Shown here: positions 9,548 to 42,660 of the stretch, piece by piece | Layout of the letters: the number at the start of each line of letters is the position of its first letter | Position numbering within the stretch: position 1 is the stretch's first letter | Assembly (NCBI GenBank): GCA_905202115.1 | Contig: CAJKQZ010000001.1 | Span: 1 to 43,877 of the forward strand | Source of the DNA: an uncultured Prevotellaceae bacterium | GTDB lineage: Bacteria > Bacteroidota > Bacteroidia > Bacteroidales > Bacteroidaceae | Length of the DNA stretch: 43,877 bases | Direction of reading: 5' to 3' | Made by a program: the position numbers and the translations under genes | The notes under the pieces: model-generated | The model's input: the letters and a program-made list of their open reading frames with translations, nothing else | Database searches by the model: none | Told to the model about the DNA's origin: nothing

Positions 9548-9750
9548 GAAAAGATTTTTTAAGGACCGGCTTCCTGCGAAAAAAAATATTTTTTCGTGTG
9601 GTAAAAAACTTCCCGCAGGAAATTGAAAATACAAGGGAGATAATCGAAAATATGTCTGAGATAATTCAAAATATCTCAGACATATTTTTTGCTACATATA
9701 CATCTGCTGATTTTCAAGTGCTTGGCGGGTGACCGTTTTTGTCTGTAAAG
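9548..9750 (+). repeat. dispersed intergenic repeat, copy B (full)
   Basis: Conserved core runs 9600..9749. The palindrome arms are 9647..9663 and 9672..9688. It lies between the convergent fcl and lipid-kinase genes. Confidence 0.92.
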
Positions 9751-9812
9751 TCCGACTACTTTTTGTGTAAAAAGACAATAAATATAATGGCCGGCCGGAT
9801 ATTAGTTGTCAA

Positions 9813-13017: not shown

Positions 13018-13056
13018 ATATCGTCATGCTGCATTTACAGCATGACGATATTTTTT
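13018..13056 (+). terminator. Rho-independent terminator after the OMP gene
   Basis: The 14-bp stem is 'atatcgtcatgctg'/'cagcatgacgatat' with a 6-nt loop, followed by 'tttttt'. Confidence 0.75.
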
Positions 13057-13101: not shown

Positions 13102-13310
13102 GAAAAGATTTTATCCTGAGCCGGACTTCTCAAAGAATAATATTTTATTTTTTTGCATGGTAAAAAACTTCCCGCAGATAATTGAAAATACAAGGGAGAT
13201 AGTAAAAAATATGTCTGAGATAATTTAAAATATCTCAGACATATTTTTTACTATATATACACCTGCTGATTTTCAGGTGTTTGGCCACTGACCGTTTTTG
13301 TCTGCAATAC
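13102..13310 (+). repeat. dispersed intergenic repeat, copy C (full)
   Basis: It has the same module order as copy B. It lies 45 nt after the OMP gene's own terminator and carries the 'caggtg/ggccactg' sub-variant. Confidence 0.92.
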
Positions 13311-13555
13311 TTGTTGGTAAAACAGCGGATTTTTATAGGTCTTTATTTCTTTTTTACTCAAAGGATTTTAAATTTAAAATAGCAGTTGATTAGGGATTAC
13401 TTCTTTGTATGTAATTTCTATTGAGCTCGAAAGATTTTTAATTTCAAAAAAGGTTTTCGAGTTTTTGGAACAATAGTCCTTTGTCCTATTGCAACTCTAA
13501 ATATTGTGGGTGAAGAAAGATTTCTGTTTTACTTATTAAAATACGAAATAAGTTG

Positions 13556-19167: not shown

Positions 19168-19207
19168 AAACCGGTCTGAGATATGAAAAAATATCTTAGA
19201 CCGGTTT
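19168..19207 (+). terminator. hairpin after the DJ-1 gene, putative terminator
   Basis: The 17-bp stem is 'aaaccggtctgagatat'/'atatcttagaccggttt' with one G-T pair and a 6-nt loop. The T tail is weak ('ctttat'). It shares the 10-mer 'gtctgagata' with the dispersed repeat. Confidence 0.5.
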
Positions 19208-19350
19208 CTTTATACCTCTTCTGTTTTCTATAAAAACTCCCTGTTATTGTAAAAGTAAACTTCTGTGATGATCTCTTCTCCCATTAAATGTTCTTACTGC
19301 TTGGGTGAAAGCCTGAGGACAAATATTTCATCTTATGGCATGTTTTTTAT

Positions 19351-19523
19351 AGAAGAAAAATTTTTTTGCGTGTAAAAAAACTTCCCGCATGAAATTGAAA
19401 ATACAAGGGAGATAATCGAAAATATGTCTGAGATAATTCAAAATATGTCAGACATATTTTTTGCCATATATACACCTGCTGATTTCCAGGTGCTTGGCCG
19501 CTGACCGTTTTTGTCTGCAAAAC
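19351..19523 (+). repeat. dispersed intergenic repeat, copy D (full)
   Basis: It has the same modules, with one substitution in the right arm ('tatgtcagaca') and the 'caggtg/ggccgctg' sub-variant. It lies in the DJ-1/recG spacer. Confidence 0.92.
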
Positions 19524-19714
19524 AGTCATAGTTTCATTTGTCTTTAATGATTCTAAAGACAGTAAAACCGTTAATAACTTTGGGAAGTCACGGTATGGAT
19601 TATTTTCTTGATTTGAATGGGTAAGCTCTCTTTGTTTGGTGTTCGCCTTTTGCACAATTTGAGTTGAGGTTCCAATATAGACAGCGGCTCGGCAAAGAAA
19701 ATGAACAGGCTTAT

Positions 19715-19745
19715 TTTGCTTTGCTCTCGCCTTTTGCTATATTTG
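19715..19745 (+). promoter_or_regulatory. candidate promoter for recG
   Basis: TTTG (19715..19718), then 19 nt, then 'tatatttg' (19738..19745). This fits the TTTG/TAnnTTTG bipartite consensus and lies 120 nt upstream of the ATG. Confidence 0.5.
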
Positions 19746-19864
19746 CGTGTAATGTTGGAGTAACGGCGGGTATAAACGGTATTTATTCCCTATGCTCCCG
19801 ATAAATAATCTGTCATGGCAAAAAGTAACTATATGTTCTTTTGTTGTAAAGGTTGAATGTACGA

Positions 19865-26622: not shown

Positions 26623-26727
26623 GGAAAACACTTTCCGCTTGTGAAAAAAATTATCTCAGACATATTTTAAAATATCTCAGAGATAATTCAAAATATGTCT
26701 GAGATAATTTTTCGGGCGTTTTTTGCC
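26623..26727 (+). repeat. dispersed intergenic repeat, copy E (rearranged, core only)
   Basis: The 57-nt near-perfect palindrome at 26651..26707 is made of the family's hairpin arms in swapped order. The 5' module is degenerate ('ctttccgc') and the 3' tail of about 70 nt is absent. Confidence 0.8.
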
Positions 26728-26732
26728 AGCGT

Positions 26733-26763
26733 GAAAAAAGCCACCTGACATTTTGTCAGGTGG
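26733..26763 (-). terminator. Rho-independent terminator for the TIGR02757 gene
   Basis: The 9-bp stem is 'ccacctgac'/'gtcaggtgg' with a 5-nt loop. On the minus strand it is followed by 'cttttttc'. Confidence 0.65.
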
Positions 26764-31733: not shown

Positions 31734-31911
31734 AAAGAGATTTTTATAAAAATCTTATAAGGCAAAAAAGTTCCCGCAGATAGTTGAAAATACAAGGGAG
31801 ATAATTCAAAATATGTCTGAGATATTTTAAAATATCTCAGACATATTTTTTGCTACATATACATGTGTTGATTTTCAAGTGCTTGGCGGGTGACCGTTTT
31901 TGTCTGTAAAA
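31734..31911 (+). repeat. dispersed intergenic repeat, copy F (5' module shortened)
   Basis: The core from 'aaaaaagttcccgcag' (31765) through 'gtctgtaaa' (31910) is present. The 'ctgcgtgg' segment is missing. Confidence 0.9.
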
Positions 31912-32105
31912 TCGAACAACAACGTATTTCAATTTTTTCGGAAAGCAGTCTTTTTTCACTTATAAAAGTATTTTGGCAGGAAACTGGATATAGATTGAAA
32001 TATTTCCTTTCCGGTGATTTCTTACTGTGTCTGTTTTATTGATAAAAATGCTTGTCTTATATCGAACTTATGTTATTCTATTTCATTCCTATTGGTTTTT
32101 ATGGA

Positions 32106-36773: not shown

Positions 36774-36994
36774 ATCAAGCAGAACAAAAAGAAAGTAATA
36801 TTTTCCGTGGCGGACTTTTTCATAGTTTGCACGATTTTTTATATTTTCGAATAATAAGGAGGCTATAATTTGAAATTTTTGATAGATTGTTATATTTTAA
36901 TCTATTTGTCTTTGAGATAATTTGATGTAAATTCGGCATAAACAGAAACAATTCCGGTAGAAAAATATAGGGGAAAACAATTTCGTAAAAAAAC

Positions 36995-37155
36995 ACTTCG
37001 CAGAAAAAATACTTTTTTCTGCGTGGTAAAAAAATTCCCGCAGATAATTGAAATTACAAGGGAGATAATTCAAAATATGTCTGAGATATTTTTTGCTATA
37101 TATACACATGCTGATTATCAAGTGTTTGGTCGGTGACCGTTTTTGTCTGCAAAAC
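36995..37155 (+). repeat. dispersed intergenic repeat, copy G (right hairpin arm deleted)
   Basis: It has the full 5' module, including a perfect 'cgcagaaaaaa-tac-ttttttctgcg' hairpin (36999..37023). A 21-nt deletion relative to the other copies removes the loop and right arm. Confidence 0.9.
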
Positions 37156-37306
37156 CAAACATAGTAAGGTATTGTCGATTTTGCGACGTGTAATTTATAC
37201 ATTAAATAAACCCTTAGAATTTCCCGATGTTTCATAACAAAGAGAAATACTAATGACCAAAAGGGGAAGTATATACTTAAAGAATATACAGTGCGTGCCA
37301 GCGTAT

Positions 37307-39799: not shown

Positions 39800-39977
39800 G
39801 TTTTAAAAAAATATTTTTTCTGCGTGGTAAAAAAGTTCCCGCAGCAAATTGAAAATACAAGGGAGATAATTAAAAATATGTCTGAGATAATTTAAAATAT
39901 CTCAGACATATTTTTTGCTACATATACACCTGCTGATTTTCAAGTGCTTGGCGGGTGACCGTTTTTGTCTGCAAAAC
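39800..39977 (+). repeat. dispersed intergenic repeat, copy H (full, closest to consensus)
   Basis: It begins about 15 nt after the lptB stop. The palindrome arms are 39873..39889 and 39898..39914, and the tail ends 'gtctgcaaaac' at 39977. Confidence 0.92.
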
Positions 39978-40105
39978 CCTACGGAAAAGTGTCGTGAATT
40001 TTAGGTGTAGCAATATTTTTATGTGTCTTAATATCTTCTGATAGAAAAAACGGAGGCAGACAAGAACTTATTTCTTTCTGATTTTCAGCTGAACTCTTTT
40101 TCTTG

Positions 40106-40146
40106 AAAAACATCCGAGATATTTCTAAATATCTCGGATGTTTTTT
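40106..40146. terminator. bidirectional Rho-independent terminator (murF-alr side and lptB side)
   Basis: The palindrome 'catccgagatattt-ct-aaatatctcggatg' is flanked by 'aaaaa' on the left and 'tttttt' on the right. Confidence 0.7.
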
Positions 40147-40191
40147 ATCCTTTTCCGAAGAGGGTAGAGGCTACGTAACTGTTGCCGTTGC

Positions 40192-42660
40192 TCAATCCTG
40201 ATAGTACACGCGCCTTACACGTTCGCTTATCGAAGTAAGTATTTCGTAAGGTATGGTTTGTAGTTTGTCGCTCAGAACCGAAACGGGAAGATTGTCGCCG
40301 AAAATCTCTACTTTGTCGCCTTCCTTGCAAGGTATGTCGGTTACATCGATCAAAGCTACATCCATGCAGATGTTTCCAACATATTGTGCTGGTTTTCCGT
40401 TGACAAGGCAATATGCATTGCCGCAGCCTAAGTGACGGTTCAATCCGTCGGCATAACCTATCGGAACGGCTGCAATGCGACTTGGACGTGTAAGGTGGCC
40501 TTTTCTCGAGTATCCCACCGTGTTGTCTGCATTTACGTCGCGTATCTGTAAAATGGTGGTGGAAAGCGTCGCTACATTGTTTACTATACTGTTGTTTACA
40601 GGATTTACTCCGTATAGTCCTATGCCGAGACGCACCATATCGAGATGATACTTCGGAAAACGTTCAATACCTGCCGTATTGCAGATGTGGCGTAGTATTT
40701 TGTGGGGAAAAACTTTTTGCAACAGGCTGCTTGCCTCGTCGAAAACAGCAAACTGCTTTTCAGTGAAGTCATCGAAAGCGGGACTGTCACTTCCCACAAA
40801 ATGAGAAAACACAGAGCGGGGAAGAACGGCGTTCTGCGATTTCAGACGCTCCACAAGTTGTTTTATATCTTTGGGGGCAAACCCCAAGCGGTGCATTCCC
40901 GTATCGATTTTGACGTGGATAGGGAAGAGTGTAACGCCTTCCCGCTCAGCTTCGGCAATGAGAGCTTCCAACAATCTGAAGCTGTACACTTCGGGCTCGA
41001 GACGATAGTGGAACATTGTGCGAAACGTTGTCATTTCGGGATTCATAACCATTATGTTGGCCGTGATTCCCGCTTTTCTCAGAGCCACGCCTTCGTCGGC
41101 CACGGCTACGGCAAGATAATCGACGCCGTGTTCCTGTAGTTTTCTTGACACTTCGAGCGCTCCTGAGCCGTAGGCGGAGGCTTTGACCATGCAAACCATT
41201 TTGGTCTCGGGTTTCATAAACGAGCGGTAGTGCTTTAGATTTTTTACAATGGCGCCGAGATTTATATCGAGCGTCGTTTCGTGCAGTTTGAGCGCAAGCA
41301 AATCGCCTATTTTCTCAAAACCGAACGAACGTGCGCCTTTCAGCAATATGGTTTCAGTATCAAAGCTGTTAAGCAAACCGCTGACAATAAAATCTTCGGT
41401 TGTAGTGAAAAAATGCTTCTCCGTTTTGAAAAAATGTGCAAAACGTGATATTTCCGGACCTACACCAATGAATTTACTGAGCTTATGCGTGTTTACCATA
41501 TCGGCGACATGAGTGTACAGAACTTCGGAATTCATTCCGCTTTGATAAATGTCGCTGAGAATAAGTGTGGTTTTCCGGCTCTGCCCGCCTGTATGCCGGT
41601 TCAGAAAGTCGAGAGCGATGTCGAGAGAATTGACATCGGAATTATAAGAATCGTTTATAATAGTACAATGCCGTATTCCTTGCGTTACTTCAAGGCGCAT
41701 AGCCACCGATTCCAGGCGGGCAAGGCCGTTGTGTATATATTCCGGATCGAGTTTTAGGTAAAGACATGTGGCCAGACAGTGAATGCTGTCGCAAATAGAG
41801 GCGTCGTCTATAAAAGGAAGCGTATAATTTCCTTCTTTGTCTTCGTATCGATAAGAAATCTGAGTGTTGTCACGGCCTTTTACAATGGACGAGACGAATA
41901 GGGGAGCGGTCTCATCTTTTACCGACCAGCGTAACTGCCGGCGTGCCACCTTTCCTATGGAAATAGCGCGGTCTACCGTTTCGTCGTCAGAGGAATATAT
42001 TATGACCTCGCTGTTTTTGAAAAGTTTGAGCTTTTCTCTGCACTTTGATTCCTTGTCGGGAAAATTTTCCTGGTGTGCATGCCCCAAATTCACCATTATA
42101 CCGATTGTCGGCTGGATTATGTTGCGTAAAGCCTCCATTTCTCCGGGCTCGGATATGCCGGCTTCGAAAATCCCGATACGTGATGATTCGTCGAGTAACC
42201 ATACAGAGAGCGGAACACCTATCTGTGAATTGTAGCTTCTTGGCGAACGCGTTACGTTCATAACAGGTTGTAGTAATTGGTTAAGCCATTCTTTAACTAT
42301 GGTCTTGCCGTTGCTGCCGGTTATGCCTATTATAGGAATGTCGTATTGCTCTCTGTGCCGTTCCGACAAGCGTTGAAGCGCTTTCCGTGAATCGATAACC
42401 AACAGGAAGTTAGCGTCGGGATATATTTGTTCTGACTTGCATGGCACTTCGGTAACCACGAAATTTTTAACACCGCGTTTGTAAAGCTCTTGGATGTAAT
42501 TGTGTCCGTTGCCGACGTTGGTTTTTATCGCGAAAAACAATGATGATTCAGGAAAGACCAGAGAACGGCTGTCGGTTAGCAGCCATTCTATTTGCGCCGC
42601 TGCATTACCGTAACGGCGGGCCCCTATAAGTGCAACGATATCTTCTATTTTGTATTTCAT
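40192..42660 (-). CDS. bifunctional UDP-N-acetylmuramoyl-tripeptide--D-alanyl-D-alanine ligase / alanine racemase
   Basis: 822 aa. The N-terminal Mur-ligase part has 'ITGSNGKT'. The C-terminal part is alanine racemase with the PLP-lysine context 'VCMVKASAYGSG' and 'GIGLYG'. As far as I know this fusion is common in Bacteroidota. Confidence 0.9.
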   Translation of the reverse strand: MKYKIEDIVALIGARRYGNAAAQIEWLLTDSRSLVFPESSLFFAIKTNVGNGHNYIQELYKRGVKNFVVTEVPCKSEQIYPDANFLLVIDSRKALQRLSERHREQYDIPIIGITGSNGKTIVKEWLNQLLQPVMNVTRSPRSYNSQIGVPLSVWLLDESSRIGIFEAGISEPGEMEALRNIIQPTIGIMVNLGHAHQENFPDKESKCREKLKLFKNSEVIIYSSDDETVDRAISIGKVARRQLRWSVKDETAPLFVSSIVKGRDNTQISYRYEDKEGNYTLPFIDDASICDSIHCLATCLYLKLDPEYIHNGLARLESVAMRLEVTQGIRHCTIINDSYNSDVNSLDIALDFLNRHTGGQSRKTTLILSDIYQSGMNSEVLYTHVADMVNTHKLSKFIGVGPEISRFAHFFKTEKHFFTTTEDFIVSGLLNSFDTETILLKGARSFGFEKIGDLLALKLHETTLDINLGAIVKNLKHYRSFMKPETKMVCMVKASAYGSGALEVSRKLQEHGVDYLAVAVADEGVALRKAGITANIMVMNPEMTTFRTMFHYRLEPEVYSFRLLEALIAEAEREGVTLFPIHVKIDTGMHRLGFAPKDIKQLVERLKSQNAVLPRSVFSHFVGSDSPAFDDFTEKQFAVFDEASSLLQKVFPHKILRHICNTAGIERFPKYHLDMVRLGIGLYGVNPVNNSIVNNVATLSTTILQIRDVNADNTVGYSRKGHLTRPSRIAAVPIGYADGLNRHLGCGNAYCLVNGKPAQYVGNICMDVALIDVTDIPCKEGDKVEIFGDNLPVSVLSDKLQTIPYEILTSISERVRRVYYQD

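Follow-up and report, generated by a model that had tools for sequence, protein, structure and literature searches.

Positions 39800-39977 of contig CAJKQZ010000001.1, read here within the 43,877-nt stretch that forms the window, lie in one copy (copy H, 39803-40022 with its flanks, + strand) of a repeat that is probably an abundant, non-coding, intergenic mosaic family resembling the bacterial interspersed mosaic elements (BIMEs), BOX and BrickBuilt, i.e., repeated DNA and not an RNA gene. An earlier sequence-only reading of this segment, which had described a modular, hairpin-bearing repeat and thought a short transcript conceivable, is partly confirmed: the repeat is real and its modules are present at 39800-39977, but several of their details are corrected below.

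The anatomy of the family is seen in an alignment of 102 distinct copies from the same species (alignment A3). Each copy has a core of ~150-165 bp (~330 bp with flanks) made up of a head, 21-bp units and a tail, and running from GGTAAAAAAC to GTCTGCAAAA; nearly all core positions are 90-100% identical, the variable patches being columns 68-69 and 94-95 (a dinucleotide each), columns 152-154 and 166-169, and the hairpin loop. Copy H follows this plan, all on the + strand, with a head (TGGTAAAAAAGTTCCCGCAGCAAATTGAAAATAC, 39825-39858) that pairs with the tail and is 90-100% conserved bar the dinucleotide at columns 68-69, an array of ~2.6 units (39863-39916) and a tail (GCTACATATACACCTGCTGATTTTCAAGTGCTTGGCGGGTGACCGTTTTTGTCTGCAAAACC, 39917-39978). 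The proposal that the element is modular and carries a 21-nt tandem duplication is thus borne out, both by Tandem Repeats Finder, which returns a period of 21, and by the 102 copies.

The unit has the form AAAATAT[G/C]TC[T/A]GA[G/C]ATATTTT and is itself near-palindromic. Units 2 and 3 are mutually complementary and form the central palindrome, which in copy H consists of perfect 17-bp arms (39873-39889 and 39898-39914) around an 8-nt loop (ATTTAAAA, 39890-39897), with T6 directly after it in a T-run that extends to 39916. Such a perfect 17-bp palindrome with an 8-nt loop had been claimed from the letters of copy H, and it is found intact in 93 of the 102 copies. The palindrome motif, GAGATA-N(4-12)-TATCTC, has 5 matches in the window against 0 expected by chance. 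The same reading had gagataattcaaaatat occurring twice in tandem; two 17-mers separated by GTCT do stand there, GAGATAATTAAAAATAT at 39863-39879 and GAGATAATTTAAAATAT at 39884-39900, but they differ by 1 nt. Across the family the two tandem 17-mers differ by 1-5 nt and are identical in 0 of 102 copies. None of the 102 copies combines the linker variant TC with the loop variant C (columns 95 and 116 of A3; 39872 and 39893 in copy H), and the 17-mers are therefore never identical, perhaps because an exact 21-nt tandem repeat would be lost by slippage, as seems to be the case in copy G.

The tail, whose conservation had been noted as unexplained, is an imperfect inverted complement of the head, and the whole core is therefore one fold-back built around the 17-bp palindrome. 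Single-sequence folds join head to tail on either strand and are far stabler than those of shuffled sequences (z = -5.1 and -6.1). Over the 102 copies, 88.1% of the cells of the fold-back are paired, against 33-52% when the partners are slid by 1-3 columns, and helix 1, between head and tail, is 82% paired. The tail is indeed conserved, as had been said, yet its strongly conserved part measures ~62 nt and not ~85, followed by a further ~45 nt of weak conservation. Within it lie the invariant TGACCGTTTTTGTCTG and a hypervariable patch, GGC[C/G/A][G/A][C/G] across copies and GGCGGG in copy H.

Conservation falls gradually outwards through flanks of ~60-85 bp on each side. On the 5' side these include an A8-TA-T8 hairpin (consensus GC-clamp-A8-TA-T8-GC-clamp) with ~60 nt upstream of it, 40-90% conserved, as are ~45 nt downstream of the core. 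The corresponding outer modules of copy H are an A7-TA-T6 hairpin with CTGCG (39801-39824, 50-90% conserved) and a weakly conserved 3' flank (39979-40022, consensus CCTACGGCAAGGCACTGCGGATTTTACGGAAAGCA). The 3' flank looks like what may be a decayed duplicate of the tail module, and more generally the outer flanks resemble decayed versions of head and tail. Flanks without an adjoining core were not found. Taking the flanks as conserved hairpins or terminators in their own right was rejected (mean z of -0.66 for the 5' and -0.33 for the 3' flank).

The repeat is abundant and strictly confined to intergenic DNA in every copy examined. A fixed-pattern scan of metagenomes gave 120 loci, nearly all of them in one assembly, which corresponds to the host species (97-99% identity to the window by blastn). 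In the resulting sample, 1.01 Mb of same-species contigs whose loci were chosen for containing a copy, nhmmer recovers ~100 distinct full-length copies, ~90 further matches cut by contig ends, and ~60 internal partial matches, most of which are a distinct short form. Adjacent copies are often 1-3.5 kb apart, and the window carries one about every 5 kb; because of this density, the sample of selected loci and the window together imply that a genome would hold several hundred of them. None of the six frames of the consensus is free of stop codons, so that it is non-coding, and small open reading frames annotated on the minus strand of some copies were rejected because of these stops. Viral contigs (searched with two patterns) and phage and plasmid collections contain no match to the repeat.

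The orientation of copies relative to flanking genes shows no strand preference: 31 lie in the same direction as both neighbours, 25 between convergent genes, 23 antisense in co-directional spacers and 18 between divergent genes. Relative to GC skew across contigs the split is 113 to 94, on which grounds a replication-coupled orientation, of the kind left by IS200/IS605 or RAYT-type single-strand transposition, was rejected. An integron attC array, considered because the copies in the window follow genes in the same orientation, was likewise rejected, given the housekeeping neighbours (gyrA, recG, der and lptB) and the random orientation elsewhere.

These features bear directly on whether the element is a structured RNA, either a small RNA or a cis-regulator, with a promoter in the 5' hairpin, switching stems and a transcript that ends at the palindrome. 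The high stability of the single-sequence folds would suit such an RNA, as would TATTTTTT, which is one base off a -7 box and lies within A8-TA-T8 in most copies. However, neither strand folds better than the other, which is what a DNA palindrome predicts, and there is no orientation bias. The 5' A/T hairpin proposed from copy H is present there, but in the family it belongs to the weakly conserved outer part. Its arm CTGCG was thought to compete for the downstream CGCAG; by direct reading of copy H, A7-TA-T6 followed by CTGCG occupies 39805-39824 and CGCAG 39840-39844, but the upstream arm occurs in only 1 of the 102 aligned copies, copy H itself (window copy G also has it), and the competing stems are therefore no feature of the family. 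Nor does competition between two GAGATA copies for the single TATCTC hold up, since 6-8 bp would have to rival a perfect 17-bp stem. The supposed -7 box fares no better: TAnnTTTG is found 5 times on both strands of the 102 copies, at scattered positions. A copy-specific complementarity in the 5' hairpin was also considered and rejected, since, although a few copies have perfect extended stems, native partners differ little from swapped ones (z = -1.8).

Covariation, whose absence had been named beforehand as undermining an RNA function, was not found among the 102 copies. RNAalifold keeps the central hairpin as the sole long helix, together with a few trivial pairs, with a covariation term of -0.2 and no compensatory change at any of 23 pairs. 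The covariation score of the fold-back, 0.038, equals the mean of shuffled alignments, and 356 of 500 shuffles attain it. Where the variable tail patch faces an invariant CCCGC, pairs are broken without compensation, and non-adjacent variable columns share no more than 0.27 bit of mutual information. Against Rfam 15 the window gives no match at the gathering score, and in E-value mode it gives just hairpin look-alikes of microRNA precursors, far under threshold. These results fit a family of DNA palindromes and not a strand-specific RNA, and a structured-RNA role is highly improbable.

A second possibility is that the element serves mainly as a bidirectional intrinsic terminator cassette at gene boundaries. 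The geometry noticed from the letters, A's upstream and T's downstream of the palindrome, is present, and the central hairpin has a ΔG of -22 kcal/mol on both strands, on each of which an A tract lies upstream and a T tract downstream. The stop codon of lptB lies 18 nt ahead of copy H with no other hairpin between, and the genome also has a few stand-alone terminator-like hairpins with the unit apex GAGATA-N8-TATCTC, such as the one at 40104-40147 (+ strand), separate from copy H. The hairpin after the DJ-1 gene (19170-19205) is related, with TATCTT replacing TATCTC.

The sequence-only reading had already held that termination alone fails to account for the whole element, and the family supports it. 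The stem of 17 bp is preceded by A4 and followed by a T6 that lies partly within it, and a consensus terminator scan leaves the palindrome unflagged. Copies C and D follow genes that carry terminator-like hairpins of their own (13018-13051 for copy C and, after the DJ-1 gene, 19170-19205 for copy D), copy G is without the hairpin in three assemblies, and termination has no need of the ~100 nt of strongly conserved sequence in head and tail. Placement is not confined to 3' ends, since the 18 copies between divergent gene starts, out of ~100, and the 23 antisense copies lie elsewhere. A terminator cassette as the main role is thus very unlikely; termination, a plausible side effect, is not what organises the element. 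When transcription reads through from a neighbouring gene, the hairpin at the centre and the A/U tracts beside it would serve for bidirectional termination or to stabilise 3' ends, an effect that would be a by-product and not the reason for the element's position. With hundreds of near-identical strong hairpins at gene boundaries, read-through and mRNA ends are probably affected genome-wide.

How the copies change between strains argues for an origin of their likeness in DNA-level exchange. Nucleotide diversity among ~10 strains, computed from a megablast-based mapping, is lowest in coding DNA (pi = 0.0120) when compared with intergenic DNA outside any element (0.0197) and with element cores overall (0.032). 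Within the cores it separates sharply into columns that vary in the family (0.093) and columns that do not (0.0089), so that family-variable sites change at ~5x the background rate and invariant sites at about half of it (0.45x intergenic). The family-variable columns, 24% of the total, hold 48 of the 64 core sites that are polymorphic between strains (odds ratio 12.5, p = 2e-19); the alleles are mostly ones already common in the family, and several are linked multi-base swaps. At three places, the copy D loop, the loop of the DJ-1 terminator and the hairpin at 40116, the loop is inverted between strains and the stem unchanged, which is flip-flop inversion within long inverted repeats. The inverted pairs are TGAAAAAA and TTTTTTCA, TTTCTAAA and TTTAGAAA, and AATTCAAAAT and ATTTTGAATT, at window 19170-19205, at window 40116-40135 as compared with 5959-5978 of L029, and in the copy D loop as seen in L133.

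From this pattern of variation we infer that ectopic gene conversion is the main process keeping the copies alike, alongside hairpin-driven DNA events and flips, and exchange between copies would explain why conservation peaks in the centre and fades outwards. An enzyme acting in trans and recognising the palindromic units would probably have dispersed the element in the manner of repetitive extragenic palindromes (REPs) and BIMEs, and not in that of a classical transposon with terminal inverted repeats and target-site duplications; in the sampled population the element would now be static.

Several observations weigh against this reading. All of 8 loci are occupied in all of ~10 strains, i.e., there is no insertion polymorphism, and neither empty sites nor flank-to-flank junctions are seen. 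The alignments hold no target-site duplication beside the core, a test limited by boundaries that are not sharp. No other repeat of at least 350 bp, and no parent element, exists in the 1-Mb sample, and the genes between close copies look like housekeeping or otherwise ordinary ones, none of them transposase-like as judged by eye, without a profile search; a composite transposon or parent insertion sequence was rejected on the same grounds. Gene conversion is itself read from the pattern of variation, for which a site-specific hypermutability of hairpin DNA may be an alternative. Selection for a sequence-specific host function would account as well as homogenisation for the slow invariant columns, and likewise for the near-identity of units across species whose intergenic DNA is otherwise unalignable.

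A single occupancy difference exists among strains, a segment replacement in L006. There, the intergenic region of copy G (L002 7756-8311, window ~36774-37306) is replaced by 3.4 kb (L006 4891-8311) encoding two proteins, one of 816 aa and one of 151 aa that has a Por_Secre_tail (T9SS) domain, and carrying its own repeat copy in the opposite orientation.

The lack of insertion polymorphism bears as much on a classical MITE (miniature inverted-repeat transposable element), whose head and tail would be the terminal inverted repeats recognised by a DDE transposase supplied in trans from an insertion sequence elsewhere, the copies arising by cut-and-paste or copy-in transposition. A small, non-coding, high-copy, intergenic element with inverted symmetry between head and tail (82% paired) would suit this account, and tens of thousands of MITE families have been reported in Bacteroidota genomes (PMC11602168). 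Yet the outermost conserved bases are not inverted copies of each other, and conservation, strongest in the middle and weaker towards the outside, runs counter to what conserved termini would give. A short-form family carries the head on one side only, and nothing of at least 350 bp in the 1-Mb sample has the same ends as the element. Together with the uniform occupancy, the missing empty sites and the missing target-site duplication, this makes a classical MITE unlikely. The repeat is not described in the literature found, which included a search by sequence strings; it may have been catalogued in bulk MITE censuses.

The short forms constitute a second repeat family, with a CTTCCCGC head on one side and three 21-nt units in the order b-a-a' or a'-b-a; overall, the arrangements a-a', b-a-a' and a'-b-a are seen, as well as related single hairpins. 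Some short forms, copy E of the window among them, have terminal CCTGACA-TTTT-TGTCAGG hairpins. An a'-b-a form of ~190 bp, found at copy E and ~20 further loci (e.g., L037 1568-1662, L063 62-157 and L077 3534-3625), is bounded on both sides by this hairpin and so resembles a classical MITE more closely than the long form does. Another variant, at L117 1248-1359, consists of the upstream flank, 5' hairpin and head, then an unrelated short hairpin and TTCGGGAGG, which is complementary to the CTTCCCG of the head and lies directly upstream of a gene start.

Two relatives with LptB 96-97% identical and a G+C content of 47.5-48.6% (L142 and L143) have three-unit short forms only, and these adjoin the same three genes, standing after lptB, after a 133-aa gene and before yceD; one of the two also has the GACCCGTTTTTGTCTGCA motif. 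At such copy density the agreement in position, 3 of 3, could be coincidence. In L144, with LptB at 89% identity and the same genes, the element is absent. With short forms alone in L142 and L143 and nothing in L144, the unit array is therefore the conserved heart of the family, limited to one clade. L142 and L143 share the gene order of the window only in part, and their gap in G+C to it (~41%) is large for such similar proteins.

Conservation of the units invites a further explanation, namely a host-functional protein-binding array in which three palindromic 21-bp sites, two helical turns apart, are kept by selection as operators for a dimeric nucleoid-associated or insulator protein, or as a gyrase site of the kind known from BIMEs. 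Each unit indeed consists of the inverted half-sites ATAT[G/C]TC and GA[G/C]ATAT in exact 21-bp phasing; it is sequence that is conserved and not structure with compensation; invariant columns evolve at 0.45x the intergenic background; related species whose G+C differs keep the units; and a function independent of orientation matches the missing strand bias. Against this, no binding protein was identified, homogenising gene conversion would give the same conservation, the loss of a unit from copy G in some strains has no visible consequence, and the more distant relative L144, which has the same genes, does without the element. We regard such an array as rather improbable.

A related idea goes further, holding that the 21-bp unit is the recognition site of a dedicated protein and that the copies form a maintained, genome-wide system for marking gene boundaries and are not junk. 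It would draw on the slow invariant sites, the conservation of sequence instead of structure and the independence from orientation, and the protein might be a domesticated transposase binding hairpins or palindromes, a Bacteroidota counterpart of REPIN-RAYT, or a nucleoid or insulator factor. On present evidence this is speculative and unlikely.

Of the 8 copies in the 43.9-kb window, seven are long copies, all on the + strand, and one is a short form. Copy A (1-87) is cut by the contig start and has the tail half only; copies B (9577-9798, nhmmer 223 bits), C (13143-13353), D (19349-19564) and F (31749-31959) are full length. Copy E (26627-26760, + strand) is the short form, with a CTTTCCGC head, three 21-nt units in the order a'-b-a (26627-26713) and the terminal hairpin CCTGACATTTTGTCAGG (26744-26760). 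Copy G (37004-37189, 148 bits) lacks exactly one 21-nt unit, and hence the palindrome, in three assemblies, and is full length in other strains, e.g., L002 7986-8198 with 195 bits. The window appears to be an entire contig, 43,877 nt being the greatest length on record for a contig with its GyrA protein; its first letters lie within one copy, and its end falls 17 nt short of the next. Between copy D and recG lies an ~84-nt tandem repeat (~19640-19810), with 2 copies in most strains and 3 in L136 and L139; its unit contains CGCCTTTTGCTATATTTG, with a perfect TAnnTTTG -7 box, just upstream of recG.

The host is an uncultured human-gut Bacteroidales, exact-protein look-ups leading to human-gut metagenome contigs of up to 638 kb, and its closest named LptB homologue is that of Pseudoprevotella muciniphila (87% identity). 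Genes around the copies are ordinary chromosomal ones (gyrA, recG, der, lptB, an alr-murF fusion and a GSCFA-family gene). The fusion is a single 822-aa open reading frame at 40192-42660 (- strand) with a Mur ligase domain and the N- and C-terminal domains of alanine racemase.

The family matters in practice as well as for its evolution. Many metagenome contigs stop inside the element, in the middle of the palindrome, and the repeat thus breaks short-read assemblies of the host and hinders binning and scaffolding of its lineage; conversely, the core sequence is a specific metagenome marker for that lineage. The element is also a candidate terminator or insulator part for genetic tools in Prevotella-like bacteria. 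With variable sites 5x hot, invariant sites ~2x cold and loops that flip, it gives a clean natural example of dispersed repeats, in a Bacteroidota genome, whose concerted evolution can be studied.

Among the closest known repeat systems, one from the same phylum is BrickBuilt of Porphyromonas gingivalis, with 19 copies, 0.44% of the genome and 1 to 22.8 repeats (Klein et al. 2015, Mob DNA 6:18; PMC4596501), and with demonstrated promoter activity (PMC4596501). Both are strictly intergenic with strain-conserved loci, and both have a leader and a tail, with some inverted symmetry between these ends, around spacer-less tandem repeats (23 nt in BrickBuilt, 21 nt here); in both, copies without leader or tail exist. 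In contrast, the repeat number here is fixed at ~2.6-3 units, the copies count in the hundreds and the units are palindromic and form a 17-bp hairpin; no sequence resemblance was seen, although the two sequences were not compared directly.

BOX of pneumococci is likewise modular, of the form A-B(n)-C, with a variable number of internal units, intergenic, multi-copy and termed MITE-like. Its outer modules are complementary, so that the whole element folds back as here; boxB is 45 nt long, and the copy number is 100 or more. It differs in phylum and in sequence, and boxB is not palindromic. The boxA-boxB(n)-boxC arrangement (Martin et al. 1992; Croucher et al. 2011; summarised in PMC3184786) is transcribed and thought to be mobilised by ISStso1 (PMC3184786), a putative mobiliser for which the repeat described here has no identified counterpart in the 1-Mb sample.

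Correia (CREE) and ERIC-type MITEs and the pneumococcal SPRITE share with the present repeat the form of intergenic fold-backs of ~100-170 bp at high density, and SPRITE can carry terminator-like hairpins, Correia a promoter and IHF sites (PMC3184786). Correia and ERIC, however, bear clear terminal inverted repeats along with a TA duplication, neither of which is seen here, and SPRITE is biased to convergent 3' ends, unlike the present family.

The REP, BIME and REPIN sequences of proteobacteria (PMC3184786, PMC2817692, PMC3733652) are similar in having short palindromic units that occur singly or in mosaic clusters with alternating orientations, in lying outside genes in hundreds of copies, and in lacking classical MITE signatures. 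REP/BIME can influence mRNA ends, and BIMEs bind IHF, gyrase and DNA polymerase I (PMC3184786). REPs are, however, G+C-rich with a GTAG or CGTC head, whereas the units here are A+T-rich with neither tetranucleotide, and REPs are reportedly biased to convergent gene ends, as opposed to a family with 18% of copies between divergent genes. No candidate for a RAYT (REP-associated tyrosine transposase, Y1/HUH) gene is present among the copy-flanked genes of ~1 Mb of fragmented contigs, in a non-exhaustive search. Having no target duplication, no insertion polymorphism and no GTAG/CGTC tag, the repeat is therefore likened to BIME, BOX and BrickBuilt as a member of none of them, and if a partner protein exists, it would extend REP/RAYT-like or BIME-like biology to the Bacteroidota.

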